Source of the DNA: a virus
Virus record (IMG/VR): IMGVR_UViG_3300020198_000009
Coordinates: 1-64,000 of that record
DNA length: 64,000 nt
Strand: one strand, 5' to 3'
Shown: piece by piece, positions 33,250-64,000 of the stretch
Layout: each line of letters begins with the position of its first letter
Numbering within the stretch: position 1 is the stretch's first letter
Position numbers and translations under genes: made by a program
Notes under the pieces: generated by a model
The model's input: only the letters and a program-made list of their open reading frames with translations
The model's database searches: none
What the model was told of the DNA's origin: nothing

Positions 33250-34365
33250 TCAGGCCAGATGACCCAGGTCGGGCCGGTACTTCTCGATGATGGCGCGAAA
33301 ACGCGTCCTGGTGCGATCTATCAGCTTCTTGATGGCCGCCGGAGTCTTGCCCACCTCCAGCCCGAAACCCCGAGATCCAGCGGTCGCGTCCAGCCCGTCG
33401 GGGGTCGCAACGATTTCCGAGACCTCGCCGGCGATGTCGCGCTCGTCGAGGGGCACGGTGTGGTGATAGAGTCCGTGGAATGCCCCGAAGACGCTGCCCT
33501 CCATCGCTGACAGGTGGCTGACCAGCTGATTGAGCGATTCGACCGTCTCGTCGCTGACCAGGTACTCGACCAGATCCGAGCCGATGGGCAGATCGGTGAC
33601 CTGGGCGTAGCCGGTGTCCTCCTTCTGACTGTCGGGGGCATGGCTCACATCGGTCGGGTGAATCGACAATGCCCCGCCCAGCAGTGCCTGAATGTGAATG
33701 GCCTTGGTGGTGCCGAGCATGCGCAACTCGTCATGGAGGGCCGCGGCGCTCTCGGGATCCGGGGCCGAGGTCACCACGACGGCATTTTCTGGGATATCGT
33801 CCTCGGGGCCTATCAACAGCAGCTTGATTTCAGTGGGTTCCGGTTCTTTTTTCAGTTTTTCCGGCTGACCTTCCGGATCTTCCGGGTTTTCCAGGAATTC
33901 CGTACGACTGGGCACGAGCTTGCGGGTCCTGGCCTTCTTGGCGACCGTCACGCGCACGACCTTCCATGGGAGATCCGGGGTGAAGGTCTCGCAGGCGTGC
34001 CGGTTGAGGATCTTCTTGAGCTTCATGATGTCCTGGAAGGGCACCTTGGCGGCATAGCCCATCTCCGAGAGGTACTTGACGATTTCCTTGCGGACATGCC
34101 AACCGGCAAACGTCAGCAACCGGTAGCCCTGGGACATGTCGAAATGCCGGATTCCATGGAGGAGGCCCAGGATGGCCGACTGCTCCAGGTCCGCATGCTC
34201 GACCCAGGTCGGGGCCGTGAAGCGGTTGATCATCGTGGCGACAAAGGGCCGATGCGCCTCGATGAGCTCCTGGACGGCCCACTTGGCTGCCCGCGCATCG
34301 GGCCCCTGGGCAACGGCCAGCAGTTCGTACTCGTGCTTGGCCGTGATGACCTTGTGCGGTTTCAA
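33250..34365 (-). CDS. Phage-encoded sigma70-family factor
   Basis: Region 1.2/2: EYELL..AQ.....A..ELIEAH..FV....RF; DLEQ.A.LGLL..I..FD.SQGYRL.TFA.W.VR..I. Degenerate C-terminal region-4-like HTH. Start probably TTG 34365. Confidence 0.8.
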   Translation of the reverse strand: MKPHKVITAKHEYELLAVAQGPDARAAKWAVQELIEAHRPFVATMINRFTAPTWVEHADLEQSAILGLLHGIRHFDMSQGYRLLTFAGWHVRKEIVKYLSEMGYAAKVPFQDIMKLKKILNRHACETFTPDLPWKVVRVTVAKKARTRKLVPSRTEFLENPEDPEGQPEKLKKEPEPTEIKLLLIGPEDDIPENAVVVTSAPDPESAAALHDELRMLGTTKAIHIQALLGGALSIHPTDVSHAPDSQKEDTGYAQVTDLPIGSDLVEYLVSDETVESLNQLVSHLSAMEGSVFGAFHGLYHHTVPLDERDIAGEVSEIVATPDGLDATAGSRGFGLEVGKTPAAIKKLIDRTRTRFRAIIEKYRPDLGHLA

Positions 34366-34790
34366 GCAGCGGGACTCTTTCCGGCCTTGGCGGCCTCGTA
34401 GGCACGATCGCAACCCAGCGGCAACCCGACGTCATGCCCATGGTGGTAGCCGATCTGGGGATCGCGCCGGTAGCCGACCGCCGCCCGGGCCGGTCGCCAG
34501 GCCTCGCCCCCGAACGGCGACTGCTTGGGATAGCACAAGGTGTAGAGCACGGCCCAGAACGCTTCGAGCTGGTAGTCCGCCGGCACCTGGGGCAAGAAGC
34601 GCACGTGCTCGACCGTCATGCCGCCAGGCGCGAAGGCGAAGACGAGCTCCTCGATGGCAAAACCGCGATCCGCCAGGTCCTTGAGGGCGCATTCGATACC
34701 GATGCAAGCGTCGGCGAACTGGCCACCCCCTTCGCGCAACGCGGCCGCAATGGCCTCTTGGAGGTAGTCGGCTGCGTCGGATTCGGTCAC
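34362..34790 (-). CDS. Hypothetical protein
   Basis: Protein-like ORF coupled to the sigma gene. Confidence 0.5.
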   Translation of the reverse strand: MTESDAADYLQEAIAAALREGGGQFADACIGIECALKDLADRGFAIEELVFAFAPGGMTVEHVRFLPQVPADYQLEAFWAVLYTLCYPKQSPFGGEAWRPARAAVGYRRDPQIGYHHGHDVGLPLGCDRAYEAAKAGKSPAA

Positions 34791-50160: not shown

Positions 50161-53058
50161 ATGTCGAGCGAGACCTTCATCGAGGACGGCGAAACCGGAC
50201 GCCGCGTCATCGTCACGGACCGAAAGAAGATTGCCGAGGCGGTACTGCATCTCAAGGGCAGGCCCCTCAAGCTCGACAACTACCGGCCCTTCCATGCCAT
50301 CTACCGCACTTCGGCACAAAACCTTGTGATACAGGCGGGACGGCAAGTGTCAAAATGTGGCACCGGCGAGAACATGATCCCCATGTTCAACGGCATGCCG
50401 GCCAGGCTCGGCGCCCTCCGGCCAGGCGATAAGGTTTTGTCTCTGGCATCTGGCTACCGCCTGGTGACTGGACAGGTGAGCGACACCATCCAAGCCGGCA
50501 GGAAGCCATGCGTGCGCCTGACGACCCGCTTGGGGCACGAGCTGGAGGTCGCCCGGAGTCATCCGATTCGCGGTCTGTTCGACTACTATCCGGCGGGCGA
50601 ACTCAAGATTGGCGACCGAGTGGCGGCTGTGCGTCGCGGCGGCTCCTTCACAGACCTGAACCCCATAACGCCGACCGAGGCCATGGTGCTCGCCTACATG
50701 ATTGGCGACGGCAGCGCTCAGGGTAAGCAGAACTTCGGCTTCACGAACTCCAAACCGGAGATCTTGGCCGAGTTCCGGTCATGCTGCGCCATGCTGGGCC
50801 AGGTCGCGCCACGAGAGTACGAACGCAAGGGCTCCTTGACGCTTCGGCTCTCGCTGGCATCGGATGCCCCGGTTCGTCGTCTCCTGGAACATCAGGGTAT
50901 CTATGGCAAGACCTCGGAAACGAAGTTCATCCCAGCCGAGGTATTCGACCTCGATCGCGAGCGCACGGCGCTCTTCCTGAATCGACTCTGGGCGTGCGAT
51001 GGCCATGCCAAGCAACTCAATCCTGGGAAATATGAAATCCACTACGCCACAATCTCGAAAAAACTGGCCCATGGCGTTCAAGCGCTCCTGTGGAAGTTCG
51101 GAATCCCGGCCTCGGTATCCCGGAGTCAACCGAAAGTCTATATAGGCACCAACAAATTCGCCTACAAGGTGCGAATTGAAACCCAAGAAGGTATCCGCCG
51201 CTTCTTGACCGAGATCGGCGCTTTCATGAAGAGCGAGAGCATCCCACTTCCGGCAGCCGAGAGTAACAATAACCGCGATACCATCCCGCAGGACGTGCAA
51301 AAGCTCATCACGGCACTCTACGAGCGCGCCCTGGCCCGGGATGCCCTGTGCGGACCCGGGCGTGCGGGGCGGCCTAGGGCTAGCATCACGGATCACGGCC
51401 TGCGCGCCACCCTAAAATACCCCCCCTCGCCACGAAAGATCGCCCAATACGTCGAGTTCTTTCAGCAGATCGGGCTCGGAGACGAACCGGAAACCATTAC
51501 CCTCGAATCACTGATCAACAACGACGTGATCTGGGATAAGATTATTGCGATCGAAGACATCGGCATGCAGGATTGTTACGACATCGAAGTCGATGTTCTG
51601 CACAACTACATCCTGGGCGGCGTTGTCACCCATAACTCGACCACCCTGGGAAACTGGTCCATCACCGACGCCATCGGCGTGCCCCATTCCGAGCAGTTGA
51701 TCGTCCTGCCCTCGATCATGCAGATGCGCCGCTTCTCATCGGACAAAGTGGGAAAAATCGTCGCCACCAGCCCGCTTGTCAAGAAATGGTTCGTCGACCA
51801 CACCTGCGAGCGCGCCATCTACAAACGCAGCTTCCTCAACGGCTCGACCATGGAATTCGCCGCCATGACCCAGATGGAATCCATACGCGGCGGCGCCAAG
51901 AACCGGGTGTCGGAAGACGAAGTGCAGGACATGGACCTGGACGCGCTTGCCATAGTGGAGGAGGTGCTAAGCGGACAAGCAAGTGACAAGATAGCAATTG
52001 CCCGCACCGGCACGGCCAAGACCGTCGGCAACACGCTGGATGTGACGTTCAAGAAATCGAGCCAGTGCGAATGGATAGTGCCATGCCCAAGCGGTCACCA
52101 CAACGTCCCGAGCCCGGACAACATCGGCGATCGGGGCTTCATTTGCAAGAAATGCCGCAGCCTCTGCGACGTGCGCGGTGGCTACTGGCGCTCCATGGCG
52201 GGCCTCGACGCCGAGTGGATGGGCTTCCACATCCCCCAGATCATCCTGCCGCTCCATACCGAGGACCAAGGAAACTGGCGCAAGCTCCTGCGAAAGCGCA
52301 ACGGCGGCGTCAGCCCGGTCGTCTTTCTCAACGAGGTCATGGGCATTCCTGCCGGCTCGGGCATCACCGCCCTGACCGAAGAGGACCTGATCAAGTGCTG
52401 CGAACCGGTCTACGAGATAGACCCCCACTACTTCCGCGGCAAGGACCACGACATCGCCGTGGTATTCGGTACCTGCGACTGGGGCCTGATGGCCATCAAG
52501 AGCTTCACGATTGCCAGCATCTGGGGGATCACCAAGGCCGGGCGCATCAAGCTGCTGTTTGCCTATCGCTTCCTGGACCCCGATCCCTACAAGCAGGTCG
52601 AGCAGATCATCCGGCTCTTCACGAACGCGGGGGTCGAGCTGGTCGGCTGCGACTGGGGCATGGGCATGATCCAGAGCCGCATCATCGAGGAGCAGATGCC
52701 CCAGGTCCCGGTCCATCGCTTTATGTACGTCGGCGAGCAGCGGGCCCTGATGAGCTGGTACAAGGAGGGCAAGCTCTGGCGGGTGAACCGTACCCAGGCC
52801 ATGACCGAAGCTTTCGTCTGGATGAAGCGCCAGCGTTTCTGGTTCCCGAACTGGTCATGGTTCAAGGAATACATCGCGCCGGATATATTATGTATTTACG
52901 AAGAGGCAGTAAATCAAGTCACATTCAAGAACGATGTCATACGGTACGCACACCCCGATTCCCAGGCCGATGACGCCACTCACACCTGCGTCTACGCCCT
53001 GCTGCTCCTTTGGATCCTTTATGACCGCGGCCGTACGGAGTTCCATCTGGCAGGCTAG
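50161..53058 (+). CDS. terL: Terminase large subunit (GpA-like) interrupted by an intein
   Basis: Walker A AGRQVSK|STT, Walker B IRG....RVSEDEVQD, GTAKT, SSQ.EW...C, GFHIPQ, NEVMG, nuclease G.DWG and HPD...DD..H. Confidence 0.9.
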   Translation: MSSETFIEDGETGRRVIVTDRKKIAEAVLHLKGRPLKLDNYRPFHAIYRTSAQNLVIQAGRQVSKCGTGENMIPMFNGMPARLGALRPGDKVLSLASGYRLVTGQVSDTIQAGRKPCVRLTTRLGHELEVARSHPIRGLFDYYPAGELKIGDRVAAVRRGGSFTDLNPITPTEAMVLAYMIGDGSAQGKQNFGFTNSKPEILAEFRSCCAMLGQVAPREYERKGSLTLRLSLASDAPVRRLLEHQGIYGKTSETKFIPAEVFDLDRERTALFLNRLWACDGHAKQLNPGKYEIHYATISKKLAHGVQALLWKFGIPASVSRSQPKVYIGTNKFAYKVRIETQEGIRRFLTEIGAFMKSESIPLPAAESNNNRDTIPQDVQKLITALYERALARDALCGPGRAGRPRASITDHGLRATLKYPPSPRKIAQYVEFFQQIGLGDEPETITLESLINNDVIWDKIIAIEDIGMQDCYDIEVDVLHNYILGGVVTHNSTTLGNWSITDAIGVPHSEQLIVLPSIMQMRRFSSDKVGKIVATSPLVKKWFVDHTCERAIYKRSFLNGSTMEFAAMTQMESIRGGAKNRVSEDEVQDMDLDALAIVEEVLSGQASDKIAIARTGTAKTVGNTLDVTFKKSSQCEWIVPCPSGHHNVPSPDNIGDRGFICKKCRSLCDVRGGYWRSMAGLDAEWMGFHIPQIILPLHTEDQGNWRKLLRKRNGGVSPVVFLNEVMGIPAGSGITALTEEDLIKCCEPVYEIDPHYFRGKDHDIAVVFGTCDWGLMAIKSFTIASIWGITKAGRIKLLFAYRFLDPDPYKQVEQIIRLFTNAGVELVGCDWGMGMIQSRIIEEQMPQVPVHRFMYVGEQRALMSWYKEGKLWRVNRTQAMTEAFVWMKRQRFWFPNWSWFKEYIAPDILCIYEEAVNQVTFKNDVIRYAHPDSQADDATHTCVYALLLLWILYDRGRTEFHLAG
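50356..51636 (+). mobile_element. Intein with LAGLIDADG homing endonuclease (427 aa) in the terminase Walker A
   Basis: Begins C(GTGE), ends VVTHN before Ser; block B T..G.EL.V...HP; LAYMIGDGS and FLNRLWACDG; YDIEV..HNY. Confidence 0.92.
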
Positions 53059-54427: not shown

Positions 54428-54568
54428 GGATCGATCTCGCTCTCGAACTCCTTGTCGGCCAGCGCCTGGCGCAACCAGGGATCGATCGGGGCCACCTCGC
54501 CCGGGATGGTCTGACTGGTCTCGTCCATGAATAATAAGGATAGCAGGTAGGACCAGCAGGAGCAACCA

Positions 54569-55314: not shown

Positions 55315-56426
55315 TCCGCACCACCAAGTCGCTCTACCTGCGCACGGTCGAACTGGCCAAGGACACGGTACCCGAGCCCTTCCTGAATTACGGCCACGCC
55401 GACGATCTGGGCCTGGGCTGGTTTCCATCGCGCGAGGCGTTCTCGGACAATGCCGATCCGGTCTTTTGGCGTGGGTTGCCACGCTTCTGCGGGGCGGTCT
55501 TCCCCTACCGCCACAACTTCCAGACCCTCTCACACCTGACCATCATCCCCTATACCGAATTCAATCAGCTCGATCGCCAGAAACGCTTCTGTCTGCCCAA
55601 CCGGCGACGCACCGGCAAGACGCCCGCCGGAGTCTTCGGCATCGAGCGCCTGCGCCGCAAACACAAGGTCCTGGTGGTCACCGACGACGAGGCCGCGGTC
55701 TGCAAGGATCCCGACACGATCGCCGTGAGCAACCTCGACGCCACCCTGATTCGCTTCATCTGCCGCGCGGCCCACAACATCGAGGTACAGGGCTCGACCG
55801 CGGGCTGGACGGCCAGGATGTTCGATCTCGCGCGCCATGGCACCCCGGTGAGCGTCAACGGCGTGGACATGGTCGAGCACGTCGCGGGCAAGATCCTGGA
55901 GATGTTCCACCAGCGCGCATCGCTGCCCATCCTGACCCACCGCGCCGTCGAGTACCTCAACTGCCTGCTGCCCATCCAGCGCATGGCCGTCATCGGCATC
56001 CTCAAGCAGGAGCACAACCTCGATCTGTCCCGCACGTTGCCCGACGACTTCCATGTCTTCCGCCGCGAGGGGGATTTCTATGATGCCGTGGGGCAGGCGC
56101 TCCGTGCCAAGCTGGCCGACGCGCGCTTCGAACCGCCTTTCGGGATCCAGGTGACCAGCCGGGACGGCAGGCGCCTGCTGGTGCCCTACGAACGGGGAGT
56201 CCTGGGGGCGGTACTGGCCGAGCTGGTGGGCGCCAGGCTCGACCTGCTCGACTGGGCCTATGATCAATTGCAGGAGCTCCCTCACTTCTATCTCTTCAAG
56301 GAGCACGAGCAGCTGGCCACCCGGGCCGAGGTCTCGCGCAAGGTCGAAGAGGTGGCCCTGGCCGTCTTGAGCCGCATGGCCGCCGAGGCCGACGCCCGCA
56401 AACCGATCGGGAGGATAGCGCAATGA
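55311..56426 (+). CDS. Hypothetical protein (weak, unconfirmed primase/TOPRIM-like look)
   Basis: VFPYR..., GVFGIE.L....VLVVTDD; function not established. Confidence 0.45.
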   Translation: MIRTTKSLYLRTVELAKDTVPEPFLNYGHADDLGLGWFPSREAFSDNADPVFWRGLPRFCGAVFPYRHNFQTLSHLTIIPYTEFNQLDRQKRFCLPNRRRTGKTPAGVFGIERLRRKHKVLVVTDDEAAVCKDPDTIAVSNLDATLIRFICRAAHNIEVQGSTAGWTARMFDLARHGTPVSVNGVDMVEHVAGKILEMFHQRASLPILTHRAVEYLNCLLPIQRMAVIGILKQEHNLDLSRTLPDDFHVFRREGDFYDAVGQALRAKLADARFEPPFGIQVTSRDGRRLLVPYERGVLGAVLAELVGARLDLLDWAYDQLQELPHFYLFKEHEQLATRAEVSRKVEEVALAVLSRMAAEADARKPIGRIAQ

Positions 56427-57883
56427 CCCCCTACGAGCACTACCTGCTGGCCAAGGAAGCGAACTGGCTGGGGAATATCGGCCAGGGGTTTGCGCAAGCC
56501 GGCCGCAACGTCGGCCAGGCCGCCAAGCAGACCTGGACATTCGCGCGCAACCAAGGCCAGGAGCAGTCGGCCAATTGGTTTGGCCGCCAGCTGGGTGAAA
56601 ACGCCATACGGGGCTATCGCAACGAGCCCCTCTCAGCCTGGGGGCAACTCAAGGCCTTCGGGGTCGGCGTCTTGAGTCCGACTGCCGGCCAGGCCATGCT
56701 CGCCAGCCACTCGGGCGGGCGGGCAGTCGGGGGCGCTCAGGCGATCGCCGACTGGGCGCGGCCCCACCTGGCTCGCTTCGGTCGGCCCAAGCCCCAACCG
56801 GTCCATCCGGGGCTGCTGATCGCCGGCGGCCTGGGTGCCGGGGCGGCGGGCTACGGGGCCGCCCGGCTCATCGACGCCAAACAGCAGGAGGCCCAGGCGC
56901 AACGCCAGAACGCCCTGCTATCGCGCCAATTGACGCCCTACGAGGAGGCTCCGTACCAGAAGGTCGCCCAGATCCGGGCCCTGCTGGACACCGAGCGCGA
57001 CCTGCGCGCGGGCCTGATGGCCTCAGCCAAGGCCGCCGCGGCCCGGCGTGCCGAAGCCTGGCGCCACGGATCCCGCGAGGCCGAAGCCGAATCGGAAGGC
57101 GAGCCGGGCGGCGTCAAGCGGGCCGAGCTCGATCGCACCGCCACCAGGCTCCTGCGCGCCATCGAGCCGAAGTATGGCGGCTGCTGCCAGGATCTCGTCG
57201 AAGGCAAGGCGCTCGACAACGCCCATGCCCGTGGTGACCACCTACTAACCGAAAACGATGTCCAGAAAGCCTGGCGGGAGCATGGCCGGCCCTACCTCAT
57301 CCGTGAGAAGCTCGAAAAATCCGAGAGCTTGCCACACAAACTCGCCAGCCGCATCTTCCTGGGCGGGGCGGTCTCGGGCCCGCAGGCCAACTGGCGTGAG
57401 GGGATCAAGCGCAAGCTCTGGGAGAAGGGCCACAGCGTCATCGATCCCCGCAAGCCCTTCGTCAAGTGGAATCCGCTCTCGGACATCTACAAGGAGCTCG
57501 CGGGCATGATGAGGGCCGACAAGGTGTTCTTCTTCCGGCCCGGGGGCTTTTCTGAGCGCGAGAAGGCCGTGCTGGAGGCCGCGAAGAAACCCTACCAGGT
57601 GGTGCGCAAGCCCGAGGAGATCGTCCAGGCCGTCGAACAGAAGCGGGCCTACGATGCTATGCTGCCGGTCGATCTGCGCGGGGCCGGGACCCAGACGCCC
57701 TCGGCCTTCCCGGTCGACCAGCACGGCCAGCCCATGACCACCTTGCGCGGCATGCTCGAAGGCGACCTCGCTATGATCACCCTGGCAAGGTACCTGCGCG
57801 ACAAGAAGCTCAGCGAATTCGATCCCATCCTCTTGTCGCTGCTCGAACAGGCGGGCAAGCGCGCACTGACCAGGAGGCCCTGA
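56423..57883 (+). CDS. MTPYE-leader virion polyprotein containing a nucleoside 2-deoxyribosyltransferase-like domain
   Basis: MTPYEHYLLAKEA; internal LTPYEE..YQKVA; IFLGG......WR..I.......VIDPR....W.....E...M.RAD.V.F (about 57347-57640) bounded by KLA and KRA. Confidence 0.6.
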   Translation: MTPYEHYLLAKEANWLGNIGQGFAQAGRNVGQAAKQTWTFARNQGQEQSANWFGRQLGENAIRGYRNEPLSAWGQLKAFGVGVLSPTAGQAMLASHSGGRAVGGAQAIADWARPHLARFGRPKPQPVHPGLLIAGGLGAGAAGYGAARLIDAKQQEAQAQRQNALLSRQLTPYEEAPYQKVAQIRALLDTERDLRAGLMASAKAAAARRAEAWRHGSREAEAESEGEPGGVKRAELDRTATRLLRAIEPKYGGCCQDLVEGKALDNAHARGDHLLTENDVQKAWREHGRPYLIREKLEKSESLPHKLASRIFLGGAVSGPQANWREGIKRKLWEKGHSVIDPRKPFVKWNPLSDIYKELAGMMRADKVFFFRPGGFSEREKAVLEAAKKPYQVVRKPEEIVQAVEQKRAYDAMLPVDLRGAGTQTPSAFPVDQHGQPMTTLRGMLEGDLAMITLARYLRDKKLSEFDPILLSLLEQAGKRALTRRP

Positions 57884-57884
57884 C

Positions 57885-58493
57885 ATGACCCCGTACGAGT
57901 GCTACATGGAGCTGATGAAGACGGCCCATTCGGCCGAGATGGATCGCCTATCGGACCTGGAAAAGGAAGCTTTCTTCGGGGCGCTGGCAGCGGGACTTGG
58001 TCGCGGTTTCGCGGGGGCGGGCGCGGCGATGCGCGCGGGTGGCGGATTGGGGCAAACCCTCGGCGCTTTTACCAGCCGGTTCAGCCGGGGATGGAGATCC
58101 GCCACGCAGCCGCGAGTAGCGAGCCGGGGCCTCGGCACCAACCAAACCTTCAGACGGCCCCCAAGACCGGCAGCGCCCACTTCAACCGCCACGGCGAGTG
58201 GCCAGACGTCTTCGGGAGTCGCCAGCGGCAACGCCCCGGGCTTCATGGGCACGCCCATCGGAACGACCATGAAGAACTGGAAACAGATGACCCCGGCTGA
58301 GATGATGCAAGGGGCAGGATCGGTCCTGGCGGGCGCCGGCGGCCTGCTCACCGGCCTGGGGCTCATGCGGCCGGCCGCCAAGGCGCGCAGCCTCATGGGT
58401 CCGGCCGCGACGGTCGCCACCGGCCTGGCCATCGGCGGTGGCCTCTCGGGAGCGGGCAAGGCCCTGGCGGGTCCGGGATACACCAACTACTAG
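57885..58493 (+). CDS. MTPYE-leader Gly/Ala-rich putative ejection protein
   Basis: MTPYECYMELMKTA..EKEA then FFGALAAGLGRGFAG. Confidence 0.6.
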   Translation: MTPYECYMELMKTAHSAEMDRLSDLEKEAFFGALAAGLGRGFAGAGAAMRAGGGLGQTLGAFTSRFSRGWRSATQPRVASRGLGTNQTFRRPPRPAAPTSTATASGQTSSGVASGNAPGFMGTPIGTTMKNWKQMTPAEMMQGAGSVLAGAGGLLTGLGLMRPAAKARSLMGPAATVATGLAIGGGLSGAGKALAGPGYTNY

Positions 58494-58506: not shown

Positions 58507-58929
58507 ATGACCCCATACGAGCTGTACATGGCCAGGCAGAAGGAAGCGGCCTGGTCCGACTTCACCGATGCGTTCGTGAACGCCAAGAACTACTTCGGCG
58601 GTCGCAATCCCCAGGGGCTCAGGCAGGCCGCCACCGCCGCCAAGTTCGGCTTGGGCGATCTCGGCCGAGGGGCCGCCAATGTCTTGGGGCACATCCCCCA
58701 GGCCTATCCCCACCTGGCCGGCGCCGCCACCGCCGCCAGCCTCGGCAGCATGGCCCTGGGGGGTCTGCGGGCCCTGCGCGAAGACCGCATGGCCGCCCAG
58801 GCCGGCCAGGAAGTCACCAGGGCCTTCAAGCCGCAGGCCACCAGACTGACCGACAGCGGCAAACTCGCCCTGGTAGGGGCTGCCGGCGTCGGCGGCGGCT
58901 ACCTGCTCGGCCGGGCCGGCAACCAGTAG
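58507..58929 (+). CDS. MTPYE-leader Gly/Ala-rich putative ejection protein
   Basis: MTPYELYMARQKEA; RBS AGGAGG; C-terminal GAAGVGGGYLLG. Confidence 0.6.
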   Translation: MTPYELYMARQKEAAWSDFTDAFVNAKNYFGGRNPQGLRQAATAAKFGLGDLGRGAANVLGHIPQAYPHLAGAATAASLGSMALGGLRALREDRMAAQAGQEVTRAFKPQATRLTDSGKLALVGAAGVGGGYLLGRAGNQ

Positions 58930-58936
58930 GCACGCC

Positions 58937-59341
58937 ATGTCTCCCTACGGCCTGTACATGGCGCAAAAACGCGGCAGTATCCACGGCGTGTTTCCCGAAC
59001 TCGCCGCCGGGCCCGGGGTGCTCGACGCCATGGCCACGGCCTGGCGAGACATGCGCCATACCCGCATCCGCTCGCAGCGCGACGCACTCCTGGCCCAGGC
59101 CGATACGGCCGCCAGCCCCGCCCAGGCCAGCCGCCTGCGCGTCCAGGCCAACCAGCTGAGAGCCAAGCTGCCACTTCCGCCGCGACACGGACCGGCAGCC
59201 CCCGCGCGGGCCGATAGCCGGCATCACCCCGCCTTCGATCCGCCGCCGATTCCCGAATCGCCCGGCTCCTACGAGGAGCTGGCGGCCATGCGCGATCGGG
59301 CACGCCAGCTCGCCCAGGGCCAGACACCAGCCAAGCGATAA
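58937..59341 (+). CDS. MSPY-leader small protein
   Basis: MSPYGLYMAQKRG; directly precedes the RNAP gene. Confidence 0.5.
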   Translation: MSPYGLYMAQKRGSIHGVFPELAAGPGVLDAMATAWRDMRHTRIRSQRDALLAQADTAASPAQASRLRVQANQLRAKLPLPPRHGPAAPARADSRHHPAFDPPPIPESPGSYEELAAMRDRARQLAQGQTPAKR

Positions 59342-59345
59342 GGCC

Positions 59346-62300
59346 ATGCGCGCGCCAGCCGAGACCCACCAGGCGATGACCCGGGCGCTGGAAGCCGGCC
59401 TCAAGCAGGTATTCCCGGTTGCGGCCGGCAACCGCATGCTCGATCTGGTCGCGGTCCATGCCCCCGACCTGCCGGATCCCCATGACTGGAACGGCCAGAA
59501 GGACGCGGTCATGGATGGTAGGACCTGGGGCAGCCCACTGCGCGCCACCCTGGCGCTCAAGGATGCACAGGGCAAGGTGCTCGACCAGAAGGCCGTGAGG
59601 CTGGCCACCATACCGGCTCCGACCAATCGCCACACGTTCATCGTCGATGGCCGGGAGTACCAGGTCAACTACCAGCGCCGGCTGAAACCCGGGATCTACA
59701 CCAAGGTCGATCGCACCGGCGCACCGGTGGCCGACTTCAACCTCGGACATGGCCGCAACTTCGCCGTCACGCTCGACCCGGAACGGAACCAGTTCCATCT
59801 GCGCCTGGGCAACGCCCACATCCCCCTGGGCCATGTCCTGGCTGGCCTGCGCGAATCGGGAGATCCCTCCCTGGGGCTGGGCAAGGCCTTCGAGCACCCG
59901 GCGGGCCCGGAGGAGACCGAGCGCGCCTTGCGGGAATTCTATGTCCAGACCCACCGCAACAAACCCATCCCTGCCGACCTGGCAGGCCTCAAGGCCGCCG
60001 TCCGCACCTGGTTCGACCACGCTACGCTCTCGCCCGAGACCACCCGGCTCACGGTCGGCGAATCCTACGGCCATGTCACCGACCAGGCGTTGCGGACTGC
60101 CGCGAGGCATGTCCTGGAAATCCACCGCGGCGATCGTCATCCGACCCACAAGGATCAGCTGGCTTACCAGGAGATCCACGGGGTCGAGGACTTCCTCAAG
60201 GAACGCCTGGTCAAGAACAAGCTGGGGCTGCACGGCCGGTTGCGCCAGACCCTCGATCGGGCCGACAAGCTCGCGGACCTCAACCTACCGGCGACCTTCG
60301 GGCCGTCAGTGCACCACTTCTTCACCCAGAGCTCGCTCTCGAACCATCCCATGCAGGTCAACCCGCTGGAAATGGCCGAGAACGCCCACAAGATCACCTC
60401 GATGGGCGAAGGCGGCATCGGAGACGCCAACGCCATCCCGATCGAGGTCAGGAACATCCATCCATCCACGTTGGGCTTCATCGACCCGGTCCGCACGCCC
60501 GACAACGCCCATGCCGGCGTGGATGTCCGCACCACCGTGCGCTCCCGCAAGGTCGGGAACCAGCTGGCGATTCCCGTCCGCGATGCCAGGACCGGCCGGG
60601 AGGTCTTCAAGACCCCTGGCGAGCTGTTCGACACGCACGTCGCCCACGACAGGGAGCCCGCCGAGAACGGCGTGGTACGCGCCATCCACCAGGGCCATGT
60701 CGTCTGGGCAAAGCCAGAGCAGATAGACTACCACCTCCCGACCGAGCACCAGTTCACGGTCAGTACGGCCCTGGTGCCCTTCATCCCCAACAGCCACGCC
60801 CACCGGGTGGCCATGGGCGCCAAGATGCTGGGCCAAGCCGTCAGTCTCGACGACCGCGAGGCGCCGATCGTGCGGACCGCCCATGCAAATACCGCGATCT
60901 CGGGCCTGTTGCCGCGCAGCCCGGTCGACGGGACCGTGGCCACGATCGTGAACGGAGCCATCAAGATCCAGGACAAGGACGGCAAGAGTCACCTCGCGCA
61001 CTATCCGCACGAGTTTCCGCTCAACGGCGGCTCGTTCCTGCATGCAGACCTGCATGTCAAGCCCGGCGACCGGGTCTCGCAAGGGCAGGTCCTCGGCGAC
61101 TTGAACTTCACCCGCGACGGCAACCTTGCACTTGGAAAAAATTTAACCGTTGCTTATCTGCCGTATCGTGGCCATAACTTCGAAGACGGCCTGGTGGTTA
61201 CCGAACAGGGTGCCCGCAAGCTTACCAGCAGCCACCTGCATACCGAAGTCGCCCTCAAGGACGGCCGCAACGTCTACGATCTCAAGCAGTTCAAGGGCCA
61301 CTTCCCCTCGACCTACACCCACGAGCAGCTCGGCAAACTCGATCCCCATGGCGTGGTACGCGTGGGCCAGGAGGTCGTCGAGGGCGACCCGCTGGTCGCG
61401 GGCCTGCGCAAGCGCGTGGTCGATCCCGAGCAGCTCATCCTGGGTAAGGCCCACAAGGGCCTCATGGAGCCCTACCGGGACGCCAGCCTGACCTGGGACA
61501 AGCCCTACGCCGGCAAGATCACGGCCGTATCCAAGACCGGCGACCAAATAAAGGTGACCATCCAGGCCAAGGCGCCGCTCCAGTTGGCCGACAAAATCTC
61601 TAATTTGTACGGCGCGAAGGGCGTCGTGACAACGATCATCCCCGACCACGAGGCGCCCCGGACAGCCAGCGGTGAGATCCCCGACGTCATCCAGAACTCG
61701 GCGGGCCTGATCAGCCGCATGAACAACGGCCAGCTCTACCACCTGACCGCCGCCAAGGCCGTCAAGGCCCTGGGGCTCGATCACATGGTCTTCCCGCAGT
61801 TCCTGGGCCAGGACGCCCACGAAGTGGTCTCGCGCCTGGCCGAAAAGGCCGGCATCGCCCCGGAAGAAGAGCTGTTCGACCCCAAGACCAATCGCAGTCT
61901 GGGTAAGGTGATGATCGGCCCGCAGTACATGCTCAAGCTCTTCAAACAAGCCGAGACCGGCTTCTCGGCGCGGGCCGGCGGGCGTTATGACGTCGATCTG
62001 CGACCGGCCAAGGGCGGCGAGGAGGGGGCCAAGTCCATCGGCTACCTCGACGTCTTCGGGTTGCTCAGTCACGGCAGCCGTGGCCTGTTGCGCCAGGCGG
62101 CGACCACCAATGCCGAATTCAACCCCGAGGTCTTGCAAGCCATATGGCGGGGCCAGCCCCTGCCGCCCCCCAGGCCCACGTTTGCCTGGCGGAAGTTCGA
62201 GGCCATGTTGCGCGGGGCGGGCGTCAACGTCACCCAGGACGGCCACAAGCTGGTCATGCTGCCGATGACCGACCAGGACACCCTGCGAGTCTCGCAGGGC

Positions 62301-63635
62301 CAGATCCGCAAACCCCTGCTGGTCAACGCCAAGGAGGACCCTCGCACCGGCCTGCCCTTCCGGCCCGAAACGGGCGGTCTGTTCGATCACGAGTCCACCG
62401 GCGGCCTGGTCGGCAACAAGTGGTCGCATATCACGTTGCCCGAGCCCGTGGTGAGCCCGCTGTTCGCCCGGCCGGCCCGCATCCTGCTCGGAATGAGCCA
62501 GCAGGCTTTCGGTGAGACGATGGCCACCGAGGGCGGGGCGGGTATCGCCAAGCGCCTGGCCGGGATCGATCCGAAGACGCGCATCGCCGAACTCGGCGAG
62601 CGGCTCAAGACGACCAGCGCGGCGGCCAAGCGCGACCAGATCCACAAGCAGCTCAAGTACCTCAAGCCGCTGGCCGCCCACGGCATCAGCCCGGCCGACG
62701 CGTACGTCGTGCGCCATGTGCCGGTCATCCCTCCCGCGATGCGGCCCATCTACCCGGACGCCGACACCGGCAAGCTGGTCAACTCGGATGCCAACCTGCT
62801 CTACCAGCACCTGCTGCTCATCGGGGATCAGCTGGCCCACCACCAGCACGAGGGCGATCCCGACACCGTGCGCGAATTGCGCCTGGGGCTGCATGACGCC
62901 CTGGCCAAGGTGCAGGGCCTCGACCCGACCACTGAATCCATGGGCAAGGGCTACGAGCCGCAGGGCTTCCTCAAGCTCATCACGGGCTCGCGCGCCAAGG
63001 AAGGCTTCTTCCAGAGTAAATTGCTCTCGCGGCGCCAGGACATCGCCGGCCGCGGGGTCATCACGCCCAATCCGGCGCTGGGTATCGACGAGCTGGGCTT
63101 GCCTGAGCCGATGGCCTGGAAGCTCTACCGCAACCATGTGGTGGGTGAGTTGACCCGGGCCGGCCTGCCGCTCGAAAGTATCGCCAAGCATGTCGAAGAG
63201 CAGACACCCCTGGCGCGCAAGGCCCTGCAAGCAACCATGGCCGACAATCCGGTGATCATGACCCGGGCGCCCAGCCTGCACCGCTTCAACCTCATGGCCT
63301 TCAAGCCGCAACTGACCAGCGGCAAGCACATCGAGGTTCCAAACCTGGTCGTCAAGGGCTTTAACGCTGACTTCGACGGTGACGCGGTCAACGTCCACAT
63401 CCCCATCACCCCGGAGGCCAAGGCCGACGCCTGGCGCGTGCTGCCATCGAAGAACCTATTCTCGACGCTCAACAAGAGCCCGATGCACACGCCCAGCCAG
63501 GAGGTCACCATGGGGCTCTGGAAGCTCGGCCAGCCCAATGGTAAGGCCACCCGGACCTTCAAGAGCCGCGCCGAAGCCATCGCCGCCTACAAGAAGGGCG
63601 ACATCGGCATCGCCGACCCGATCGAAATAGGTTGA
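59346..63635 (+). CDS. Multisubunit RNA polymerase: beta fused to the N-terminal half of beta'
   Basis: beta: FIVDGRE.....PG, NPLE..., EVRNIHP...IDPV.TP, LVPF...RV.MGAKM.GQAV, LALGKN...Y.P..G.NFED, DKI...G.KGV, SRMN.GQ, YMLKL. beta': GLFD, HI.L, VPVIPP..RP, D.N.LY, K.G.F...LL.RR.D..GR.VI, RAPSLHR, FNADFDGD, PSQE...GL. Confidence 0.95.
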   Translation: MRAPAETHQAMTRALEAGLKQVFPVAAGNRMLDLVAVHAPDLPDPHDWNGQKDAVMDGRTWGSPLRATLALKDAQGKVLDQKAVRLATIPAPTNRHTFIVDGREYQVNYQRRLKPGIYTKVDRTGAPVADFNLGHGRNFAVTLDPERNQFHLRLGNAHIPLGHVLAGLRESGDPSLGLGKAFEHPAGPEETERALREFYVQTHRNKPIPADLAGLKAAVRTWFDHATLSPETTRLTVGESYGHVTDQALRTAARHVLEIHRGDRHPTHKDQLAYQEIHGVEDFLKERLVKNKLGLHGRLRQTLDRADKLADLNLPATFGPSVHHFFTQSSLSNHPMQVNPLEMAENAHKITSMGEGGIGDANAIPIEVRNIHPSTLGFIDPVRTPDNAHAGVDVRTTVRSRKVGNQLAIPVRDARTGREVFKTPGELFDTHVAHDREPAENGVVRAIHQGHVVWAKPEQIDYHLPTEHQFTVSTALVPFIPNSHAHRVAMGAKMLGQAVSLDDREAPIVRTAHANTAISGLLPRSPVDGTVATIVNGAIKIQDKDGKSHLAHYPHEFPLNGGSFLHADLHVKPGDRVSQGQVLGDLNFTRDGNLALGKNLTVAYLPYRGHNFEDGLVVTEQGARKLTSSHLHTEVALKDGRNVYDLKQFKGHFPSTYTHEQLGKLDPHGVVRVGQEVVEGDPLVAGLRKRVVDPEQLILGKAHKGLMEPYRDASLTWDKPYAGKITAVSKTGDQIKVTIQAKAPLQLADKISNLYGAKGVVTTIIPDHEAPRTASGEIPDVIQNSAGLISRMNNGQLYHLTAAKAVKALGLDHMVFPQFLGQDAHEVVSRLAEKAGIAPEEELFDPKTNRSLGKVMIGPQYMLKLFKQAETGFSARAGGRYDVDLRPAKGGEEGAKSIGYLDVFGLLSHGSRGLLRQAATTNAEFNPEVLQAIWRGQPLPPPRPTFAWRKFEAMLRGAGVNVTQDGHKLVMLPMTDQDTLRVSQGQIRKPLLVNAKEDPRTGLPFRPETGGLFDHESTGGLVGNKWSHITLPEPVVSPLFARPARILLGMSQQAFGETMATEGGAGIAKRLAGIDPKTRIAELGERLKTTSAAAKRDQIHKQLKYLKPLAAHGISPADAYVVRHVPVIPPAMRPIYPDADTGKLVNSDANLLYQHLLLIGDQLAHHQHEGDPDTVRELRLGLHDALAKVQGLDPTTESMGKGYEPQGFLKLITGSRAKEGFFQSKLLSRRQDIAGRGVITPNPALGIDELGLPEPMAWKLYRNHVVGELTRAGLPLESIAKHVEEQTPLARKALQATMADNPVIMTRAPSLHRFNLMAFKPQLTSGKHIEVPNLVVKGFNADFDGDAVNVHIPITPEAKADAWRVLPSKNLFSTLNKSPMHTPSQEVTMGLWKLGQPNGKATRTFKSRAEAIAAYKKGDIGIADPIEIG

Positions 63636-63689: not shown

Positions 63690-64000
63690 ATGTCCGAGAA
63701 GCGCTACAAGCCCTACGTCTGGGTCACCTGGATCACCAAGCTGCTGGCTGGCGAATCGCATTGTCGCTGGTCGGCCTGGTTCCGGGCCAACTACAAGTAC
63801 AGCAAGCTGCCGAGCGATTTCTCGTTCGCCAAATGGAAGGCCGAGCACTCGGAACTGGTCAGCAGGCGCGCCAAGGAGCTGCGCGACGCGGGCTACACGG
63901 TCAAGCTGGAAGACCAGAACGCCTTCAAGCTCGACGGCCGAAACGGCGTGACACTCGCGGGCAAGCCCGATCTGATCGCCTTCCGGACGGCCGTCGAGAA
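63690..64000 (+). CDS. PD-(D/E)XK nuclease (RecB/Cas4-like), cut by window edge
   Basis: YVWVTWITKLLAGE..C.W.AWF...; E.QN.F.L.G..G.TLAGKPDLIA. Preceded by TTGCAA-18-TATCGT promoter-like sequence. Confidence 0.7.
   Translation, partial: MSEKRYKPYVWVTWITKLLAGESHCRWSAWFRANYKYSKLPSDFSFAKWKAEHSELVSRRAKELRDAGYTVKLEDQNAFKLDGRNGVTLAGKPDLIAFRTAVE

Follow-up and report, generated by a model that had tools for sequence, protein, structure and literature searches.

Phage-encoded multisubunit RNA polymerases, the β-β′ fusion of Helicobacter and the split β′ of cyanobacteria were each known beforehand. In the Helicobacter-type natural rpoB-rpoC fusion, as in engineered β::β′ tethers of Escherichia coli, the C-terminus of β is joined straight to the N-terminus of β′. 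Such a tether is compatible with an active enzyme, and these polymerases keep a full-length β′, the zinc ribbon, α2 and ω, and have no second cut. Here we describe a phage polymerase gene in which β runs into β′ and, unlike in the Helicobacter-type fusion, β′ has a second cut. The gene lies at positions 59346 to 63635 of a 64-kb stretch of DNA (hereafter the window), the first 64 kb of the 80,429-bp IMG/VR virus record IMGVR_UViG_3300020198_000009, which comes from an uncultured lake-water phage. CheckV put the completeness of this contig at about 39%, for a genome of about 200 kb. We named the product of this gene chain 1, and that of a second gene further along the contig chain 2.

In the cyanobacterial and plastid enzymes, with γ/RpoC1 and RpoC2 (PDB 8gzg, 8syi, 8h3v), the cut in β′ separates the catalytic barrel from the bridge-helix module, as in this phage; unlike here, β is separate, and α and ω are present. 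The phiKZ/AR9 polymerases (PMC7598289, PMC7824862) are also phage-encoded and α-less, with β′ cut into a barrel-containing N piece and a C module, and with an SNF2-type helicase linked to the β′ C-terminal gene. Unlike the present enzyme, however, they have β cut into two to three pieces and unfused to β′, whereas β is whole and fused here; their genomes also encode two enzyme sets each, virion and non-virion, but no sigma factor, whereas a sigma gene is found here. The mReC polymerases (PMC7481178) likewise belong to uncultured tailed phages outside the phiKZ group, with β and β′ close enough to be matched by cellular COG profiles. The mReC paper reports separate β and β′ matches and T4-type capsid proteins (PF07068), and mentions fusion for crAssphage only (PMC7481178). 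The capsid candidate of our contig (window 40514-41443) gave no PF07068 match. We found no paper describing a fused or split β-β′ in tailed phages, only those on crAss, P23-45, phiKZ/AR9, mReC and the isolation of Salmonella phage Arash.

Chain 1 carries β and the front of β′ in one open reading frame

The features of the chain 1 gene are as follows.

59346..63635, + strand: gene of RNA polymerase chain 1 (β plus N-terminal β′), 1429 amino acids (aa), from the open reading frame (ORF) and translation, Pfam, solved structures and homologues
59346..62255, + strand: predicted β part with lobes, fork, flap and second double-psi barrel (aa 1 to ~970, boundary approximate)
62256..63632, + strand: predicted β′ N-terminal part with clamp, clamp helices and catalytic barrel (aa ~971-1429, equivalent to bacterial β′ ~26-550)
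62397..62420, + strand: site of the lost β′ zinc ribbon (32 residues, four Cys), a profile gap between TGGL and VGNKW
63363..63383, + strand: NADFDGD, the Mg-binding catalytic motif (aa 1340-1346)
63630..63635, + strand: fission point, last codon G1429 and TGA, where single-chain relatives continue after ~1 residue into β′ C-terminal sequence

Chain 1 is a single ORF of 1429 codons with an ATG start and a TGA stop. As the first-pass annotation had read from the sequence, it holds β motifs through YMLKL (aa 861) and runs into the β′ motifs NADFDGD (aa 1340-1346) and PSQE (aa 1383). On the β side, Pfam found Rpb2_3 at aa 337-392 (E 5e-7) and Rpb2_6 at aa 587-883 (E 5e-39), and on the β′ side Rpb1_1 (weak) and Rpb1_2 at aa 1297-1364 (E 8e-24). 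Solved bacterial β subunits matched aa 73-983 with E down to 8e-64, and solved β′ subunits matched aa 1054-1420, corresponding to E. coli-type residues 171-542 (E ~3e-48). The β part aligned with residues 91-1038 of cyanobacterial β, and with Streptomyces β as far as residue 1160/1178.

In hhalign with a profile of 16 relatives, positions 973-1427 matched bacterial β′ 26-550 (probability 100%, E 1e-43). The β′ alignment sets in at aa 975, and there is no linker between the β and β′ parts. Further, the profile alignment contains a 32-residue deletion covering the site of the β′ Cys4 zinc ribbon and a second one of 38 residues near bacterial β′ residues 141-178. The absence of the zinc-finger cysteines noted earlier was thus borne out, and none of the 1429 residues of chain 1 is a cysteine. 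The clamp helices and the flap tip are retained in structure-based alignments, and the catalytic aspartates D1342, D1344 and D1346 are invariant across the 16 relatives. Over the parts of the chain 1 gene that they cover, short contigs assembled from three further lake-water runs match it letter for letter. By its sequence, chain 1 is assigned to the β/β′ type of two-barrel RNA polymerase, with the key catalytic residues of both barrels kept.

The other part of β′ is encoded 14.1 kb downstream

The first-pass annotation had placed the C-terminal half of β′ in a separate gene outside the window and proposed a search for it in the rest of the genome. Such a gene is present on the same contig and the same strand, 14.1 kb downstream of the chain 1 gene.

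Contig 77719-79569, + strand, outside the window: gene of RNA polymerase chain 2 (β′ C-terminal half), 616 aa, intact

In chain 2, Pfam found Rpb1 domains 4 and 5 (Rpb1_5 E 6e-16), and residues 659-1165 of the solved Streptomyces β′ aligned with it (E 2e-40). The bridge helix and trigger loop are located on chain 2 and not on chain 1; chain 2 also contributes the C-terminal portion of the clamp. The claim that the polymerase lacks both elements therefore holds for the ORF in the window but not for the enzyme. The catalytic His of the trigger loop is kept, and the adjacent Arg is replaced (TQLALQSKHSGG). Chain 2 has exactly four cysteines (230, 288, 295 and 298), which coincide in position with the second zinc site.

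Together, the two chains make up 1429 + 616 = 2045 aa. Among the matches, the smallest bacterial β and β′ add up to about 2200 aa, which makes "compact", the word first used for this polymerase, only moderately true. These comparisons lead us to conclude, with good confidence, that the phage probably encodes a bacterial-type multisubunit RNA polymerase of two polypeptides, chain 1 and chain 2. The two chains would assemble non-covalently and thereby close the active-site cleft.

The cut in β′ is clean and shared by a large phage lineage

A family search over 5.8 billion proteins gave about 80 members. These comprise proteins of 1420-1505 aa ending at the same residue as chain 1, longer ones of 2030-2170 aa that run on through the β′ C-terminal half, a small number of ~1093 aa that stop at position ~1060, and intein-bearing versions. 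Thirty-seven homologues end at chain 1 position 1428/1429, with alignments running from residue 1, and the closest relative (P0004) has 70% identity.

The single-chain fusions (~2030-2170 aa, e.g., P0024, P0041, P0054 and L014) belong to the same family, with 33-38% identity, and are collinear with our chains; unlike these, they are uncut, hold the whole catalytic core in one polypeptide and are basal to the split clade. In the full fusions P0024, P0043 and P0051, chain 1 residue 1429 and chain 2 residues 1-3 map 1-4 residues apart, and the IMG/VR locus L014 has one uninterrupted 2150-codon ORF spanning the junction. Because chains 1 and 2 are collinear with the full fusions at this spacing, the split is a clean cut with nothing lost.

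We also searched with chain 2 without a profile and classified the best 149 cluster representatives at 50% identity, all with E <= 1e-67. Standalone chains starting no more than 15 residues from the seam made up 69 of these clusters and full β-β′ fusions 47, followed by N-truncated or partial fusions (23) and unclear cases (10). The IMG/VR loci were recovered by an alignment-based scan; chain 2 alone as query returned none. The two-gene layout is kept at 55-70% identity over many contigs. Taken together, the fused-then-split layout is common to a large phage lineage and common in metagenomes, and this phage is one further member rather than a one-off.

Other cuts and extensions were also observed. 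In P0067, P0068, P0072, P0074 and P0078, a second fission leaves a "β" of ~1093 aa that ends at ~1060, after the first ~170 residues of β′. The partners P0160, P0189 and P0241 start at ~1060 and have ~980-1020 aa, or 1384 aa where an intein is present. Twelve standalone C-terminal chains of other phages (P0133, P0136, P0148, P0156, P0162, P0206, P0221, P0227, P0229, P0230, P0256 and P0269) carry an extra 260-680 aa at the C-terminus, and these extensions gave no match to the SNF2 domain of this phage.

The seam is close to those of cyanobacteria and phiKZ-like phages

The split had initially been likened to that of cyanobacterial and plastid rpoC1-rpoC2. For the start of the C piece the likeness stands: chain 2 residues 23-29 align with cyanobacterial RpoC2 residues 14-19, which places the two starts no more than about 10 residues apart, with chain 2 starting earlier. 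It does not extend to the end of the N piece, where cyanobacterial γ runs ~75 residues past the end of chain 1. With β fused here, the seam ends differing and the family forming its own clade, the locus is not an instance of the cyanobacterial split.

The phiKZ-like polymerases had been set apart as split differently. This is right for β but less so for β′, where the PHROG profiles of the phiKZ/AR9-type pieces end or begin about 27-40 residues from the seam. Chain 1 is similar to the phiKZ/AR9 type at E 1e-17 to 1e-23, versus 1e-60 for bacterial subunits, and the polymerase falls outside the phiKZ/AR9 class.

Phylogeny points from fused to split forms

The family was aligned to a hidden Markov model of 16 close relatives, with inteins dropped, and trees were built on positions 320-1429. 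The outgroup consisted of eight bacterial β sequences, with no cyanobacterial β among them. With FastTree (85 rows) as with IQ-TREE (55 rows), the basal branches are those of single-chain forms. In both trees, the forms split at 1429, Arash included, all fall in one group whose sister is a single-chain form; two intein-bearing single-chain rows lie in an unresolved fork inside the split group. When the 24 split rows were forced into one clade, the likelihood was better than that of the free quick search, and the approximately unbiased test did not reject this arrangement (p 0.66). The data are thus compatible with the split forms making up one derived clade that includes Arash. The forms cut at ~1060 arise separately within a single-chain clade.

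These trees support a fused ancestor that would have been cut twice independently, with one of the cuts giving rise to the clade to which this phage belongs. In this course of events, a single-chain β-β′ fusion of ~2050 aa would have been cut at a break-tolerant seam to give the present layout, and the SNF2 gene, here with about 9 kb of accessory genes, would later have been placed between the halves.

On the trees, the phage sequences make up a clade of their own, separate from the eight outgroup bacterial β sequences, and the family is not derived from the Helicobacter lineage. Bacterial contamination or a Helicobacter-like rpoBC was considered and rejected on the phage context (portal, capsid and terminase) and the trees.

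Salmonella phage Arash shares the layout

Among cultured phages, only Salmonella phage Arash and Vibrio phages D69, D148 and D181 have a full-length chain 1 match; in D148 and D181, the polymerase gene is interrupted by a homing endonuclease. Arash (OQ632216.1) encodes gp206, of 1525 aa, with 33% identity over 100% of chain 1, and gp216, of 606 aa, which starts at the same seam and has 28% identity over chain 2 residues 4-616. Like our phage, it has an adjacent SNF2-type helicase (gp217) and sigma-like factors (gp10 and gp196), and no α gene. By tblastn, the portal, major capsid, terminase and tail genes, the sigma-like gene, SNF2 and both chains are common to the contig and Arash. The phage described here thus has what marks the Arash-type lineage, namely a fused ORF ending at the seam, a separate C-terminal gene, a linked SNF2 gene and a sigma-like factor. 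The latter two genes are located as follows.

33250..34413, - strand: sigma-like factor gene, 387 aa, Sigma70_r2 at E 2.6e-11 and 4e-9, above cut-off
Contig 71060-73975, between the two halves: SNF2 helicase gene, equivalent to Arash gp217

Unlike our phage, Arash is a myovirus of Salmonella with a genome of 181 kb and a lower G+C, has its halves ~7 kb apart with gp217 directly after gp216 rather than between them, and is without the MTPY leaders described below. The Arash paper names the two genes simply β and β′ and leaves the layout undescribed (PMC10585845).

The SNF2 gene lies between the halves in this contig and in five syntenic IMG/VR relatives (L010-L013 and L016; 55-59% identity), in which chain 1 is followed by 1.4-3.6 kb, SNF2, a small conserved gene and chain 2. 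The halves are 4.25-5.1 kb apart in these five, and the 14.1 kb seen here is the largest interval between halves known so far in this layout. The extra DNA, some 9 kb of accessory genes, encodes a diguanylate cyclase, an HNH endonuclease and a large protein whose match to a kinase domain is weak and below threshold; it also holds an MTPY-leader gene on the minus strand and one gene of unknown function. These extra genes have no counterpart in the five syntenic relatives. The cyclase gene (contig 74056-75072; L001:12056-13072) encodes a response-regulator receiver and a GGDEF domain (E 2.5e-36), and the HNH gene (contig 75079-75483; L001:13079-13483) follows it directly.

The polymerase gene is near the terminase gene here, and between the portal/capsid genes and the terminase gene in L014, L020 and L021. 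Three complete relatives have genomes of 183-208 kb with terminal repeats; the closest complete ones are 204-208 kb, with direct terminal repeats. In one lake-water run, this stretch is found complete on a 36-kb contig and in parts on a 157-kb contig, so that recovery of more of the genome should be possible.

Leader genes, a promoter-like element and possible packaging

From the position of the polymerase gene, 4 nt behind a cluster of genes with a shared PY-containing leader, the first-pass annotation had argued that the enzyme is packaged in the virion. The position itself is as described, with the gene in a tight same-strand block after four leader genes. The elements concerned are listed here.

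56423-57883, 57885-58493, 58507-58929 and 58937-59341, + strand: four upstream MTPY/MSPY-leader genes, spaced by -4 to 13 nt and ending 4 nt before the polymerase gene
43402 (-), 44128 (-), 48261 (-), 56423, 57885, 58507 and 58937: starts of leader ORFs in the window
65290 (-), 68159, 69409 and 79621: starts of leader ORFs on the contig beyond the window
L010:7188, 9573 and 14682; L011:17219; L016:8023 and 17842: leader ORFs in relatives
54545..54555, + strand: candidate promoter element AGGTAGGACCA, one mismatch to TGGTAGGACCA, preceded by a TAATAA box, with the first gene of the block starting 14 nt further on
26184, 33215, 34840, 40441, 43900, 50138, 54545, 65413 and 77706 of the contig (the first seven in the window): sites of the TGGTAGGACCA element

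The same-strand block extends over 54569-64367, with gaps of -4 to 13 nt among the last five genes. Scans of the region for sigma-70 promoters and terminators gave nothing above chance and no convincing terminator. From this arrangement, co-transcription of the polymerase gene with the leader genes is plausible. In L010 and L013, too, a g60 homologue precedes the polymerase gene.

Eleven ORFs of the contig start with M-(T/S/D)-P-Y-x-x-Y, and three of these lie between the capsid gene and the terminase gene. In L010, L011 and L016, the SNF2 gene itself is headed by the leader; gp217, the orthologue in Arash, is a protein of the virion. The leader looks like a lineage-specific signal for capsid targeting or processing, and in principle it resembles the capsid-targeting peptides of the T4 internal proteins. 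For the polymerase itself, only a loose resemblance was seen, in the chain 1 start MRTPQETF of the close subclade. Because the polymerase chains are without a clear leader, and Arash is without leaders, the positional argument for packaging is weak.

A perfect copy of the TGGTAGGACCA element at contig 77706 lies 2 nt ahead of the chain 2 ATG, and a TATAAT-like box with the element precedes the terminase gene, other capsid- and tail-adjacent genes, the chain 1 block and chain 2. Its palindromic arms, taken as the looser pattern TGGT-N3-ACCA, occur 12 times versus 0.7 expected. The oriented intergenic copies follow a TATAAT, TACAAT or TATCAT box by 2-5 nt and precede start codons by 1-50 nt; a -35 element is absent. 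In the relatives' loci, the element was not found (two unrelated matches only). We regard it as a candidate promoter, initiator or operator element of the structural genes and both polymerase genes. Its distribution would fit late co-expression with the structural genes, as expected for a packaged enzyme.

The terminase gene, one of those preceded by the element, lies at window 50161-53058 (+) and encodes a large terminase of 965 aa equivalent to Arash gp1. Ahead of its ATPase domain is an intein of ~400 aa with a LAGLIDADG endonuclease (PF14528, E 1e-18) and an Intein_splicing match (E 7e-11).

In the mass spectrometry of Arash virions, gp206 gave 3516 spectra, the most of any protein, followed by gp216 with 1210, gp217 with 1148 and the sigma-like gp10 with 467 (PMC10585845). 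Weighing these lines together, we slightly favor the view that the polymerase is made late along with the structural genes, packaged in the capsid and injected to start transcription, as the Arash virion proteome suggests.

The best-surviving alternative is that the host enzyme reads the early genes, the phage enzyme with its sigma-like factor takes over the middle and late genes, and packaging is not deliberate. Neither chain bears the MTPY leader of the neighboring putative cargo genes, and the box upstream of the shared element resembles the host -10 hexamer and could be read by the host polymerase. There is also one polymerase set per genome here, while the phiKZ-type phages, with a proven virion enzyme, have two. 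As the Arash authors themselves allow, abundant intracellular enzymes might contaminate virion preparations (PMC10585845). However, gp206 spectra exceed those of the major capsid protein, with gp216, gp217 and the sigma-like gp10 alongside; the genes lie within the morphogenesis module in several lineages; and the SNF2 partner of the relatives shares its leader with putative head cargo. We therefore consider a purely non-virion enzyme rather unlikely.

Partner subunits

The sigma-like protein matched the sigma factor family phrog_351 (E 4e-14) and, weakly, Arash gp196. A sigma70-region-2 gene was found in Arash and in all but one of the relatives searched. Searched with models of α and ω (PF01000, PF01193 and PF01192), the contig, Arash and the three complete relatives yielded nothing at E <= 1, while all 14 control genomes were matched. 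The contig, Arash and each of the three complete relatives contain one catalytic β′ gene only.

On these gene contents, the polymerase is most likely an α-less, sigma-using, two-chain enzyme. Because no α or ω gene is present, the covalent β-β′ tether would stand in for the α-dimer assembly platform. Promoter choice would be made through the phage sigma-like factor (33250-34413), bound by the clamp helices and flap tip, and the SNF2 protein may work with the enzyme, as proposed for the polymerase-linked helicase of the phiKZ type (PMC7824862).

The same absence of phage α and ω genes could mean instead that the phage chains borrow a host α dimer, and perhaps ω, the core not being self-sufficient. 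The β part covers bacterial β near-completely, and its α-contact surfaces may persist. Against this hybrid, the tether is conserved family-wide, single-chain forms included, which fits tether-driven self-assembly; a packaged enzyme would need host α to be carried into the capsid; and phiKZ-type phage polymerases function without α (PMC7824862). A borrowed host α is thus improbable, and the self-assembling two-chain enzyme is preferred.

The β active-site loop

One site of chain 1 differs from the close relatives.

61587..61622, + strand: β active-site loop, ADKISNLYGAKG; family consensus GDKLAGRxGNKG

The catalytic lysines K750 and K758, invariant among relatives, are kept, and 6 of the 12 loop residues depart from the close relatives. 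The loop is encoded by the AT-rich run AAA ATC TCT AAT TTG TAC in a gene with 87% G+C at third codon positions. The same site is the place of intein insertion in P0018, P0037, P0074, L019 and L020, and further intein sites of the family are at ~385-415, ~545-585, ~803-837, ~922 and ~1346-1352, the last just past NADFDGD. The AT-rich patch may reflect a homing-site change or be the scar of co-conversion or intein loss.

Arash and a whole clade of relatives show similar loop changes, with L or V at the R754 position. An enzyme inactivated by R754L was rejected on this ground and on the retention of both catalytic lysines. A sequencing or assembly artefact at the patch was also rejected; the contigs of runs X3 and X4 are identical over it.

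A decaying remnant, that is, a truncated rpoBC-like gene with an unrelated or inactive other half, would suit the unusual loop in its AT-rich patch and the lost zinc ribbon, but is highly improbable given two intact ORFs, an invariant Asp triad and both Lys, the same loop changes in Arash and a whole clade of relatives, a layout kept at 55-70% identity and identical sequence in independent runs.

Neighboring genes

The gene that follows the fission point is the last of the same-strand block.

63690..64000, on to contig 64367, + strand: first gene past the fission point, 225 aa

Its product was matched neither by Pfam or PHROG nor, in tblastn, by anything in L010-L023, and the single-sequence AlphaFold model, with a mean predicted local distance difference test score of 36, was unusable.

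At the other end, a 98-bp direct repeat (96/98 identical) occurs at contig 79554-79651 and 80332-80429. The first copy spans the end of the chain 2 gene, the spacer and the first codons of a leader gene, and the second is the final 98 bases of the contig. The assembly therefore stops within a repeated leader-gene unit.

Discussion

The preferred reading, an α-less, sigma-guided, two-chain polymerase, can be set in a wider scenario that we offer tentatively. In it, a lineage of phages of ~180-210 kb would have a single self-assembling polymerase without α or ω, re-cut from a single-chain ancestor of ~2050 aa at the cyanobacterial seam and near that of the phiKZ-like phages; both chains would be packaged and injected together with the sigma-like factor and SNF2; and an MTPYELYM-like leader would address cargo to the capsid, with MRTPQETF perhaps being a degenerate copy of it at the head of chain 1.

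Several points weigh against the preferred reading. For its root, the family tree depends on fast methods and on outgroups of β only. The β loop is unusual, with R754L among its changes, though Arash shares similar changes, and the trigger-loop Arg next to the catalytic His is changed. Divergent α- or ω-like proteins would escape the Pfam models, and a second polymerase, an α-like protein or more sigma factors could lie in the part of the genome beyond the contig; as a counterweight, Pfam-level searches of Arash and the three complete relatives turned up none. For packaging, neither polymerase chain has a clear MTPY leader and none is found in Arash, and the caution of the Arash authors about virion preparations applies (PMC10585845).

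What we found described in no paper is the combination as an architecture, with β fused to the front of β′, the back of β′ separate, no α or ω gene found and a sigma-like factor of the phage's own; the lineage itself was already in public records, and Arash is published. To it, this phage adds the largest interval between the halves, a promoter-like element abutting chain 2 and an odd β loop at an intein hot spot.

In cyanobacteria and plastids as here, gene fission fell at the same inter-domain seam of β′, close to the phiKZ-like break. A minimal core of ~2045 aa, in two chains or one, is attractive for studies of structure and assembly and as an orthogonal transcription module. Bacterial polymerase needs an α dimer to join β and β′, and this lineage appears to manage without α by tethering the two. 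If packaging is true, these phages would have a third strategy by which an enzyme of cellular type carries out host-independent early transcription, beside those of the phiKZ type and of the crAss/N4/P23-45 types.

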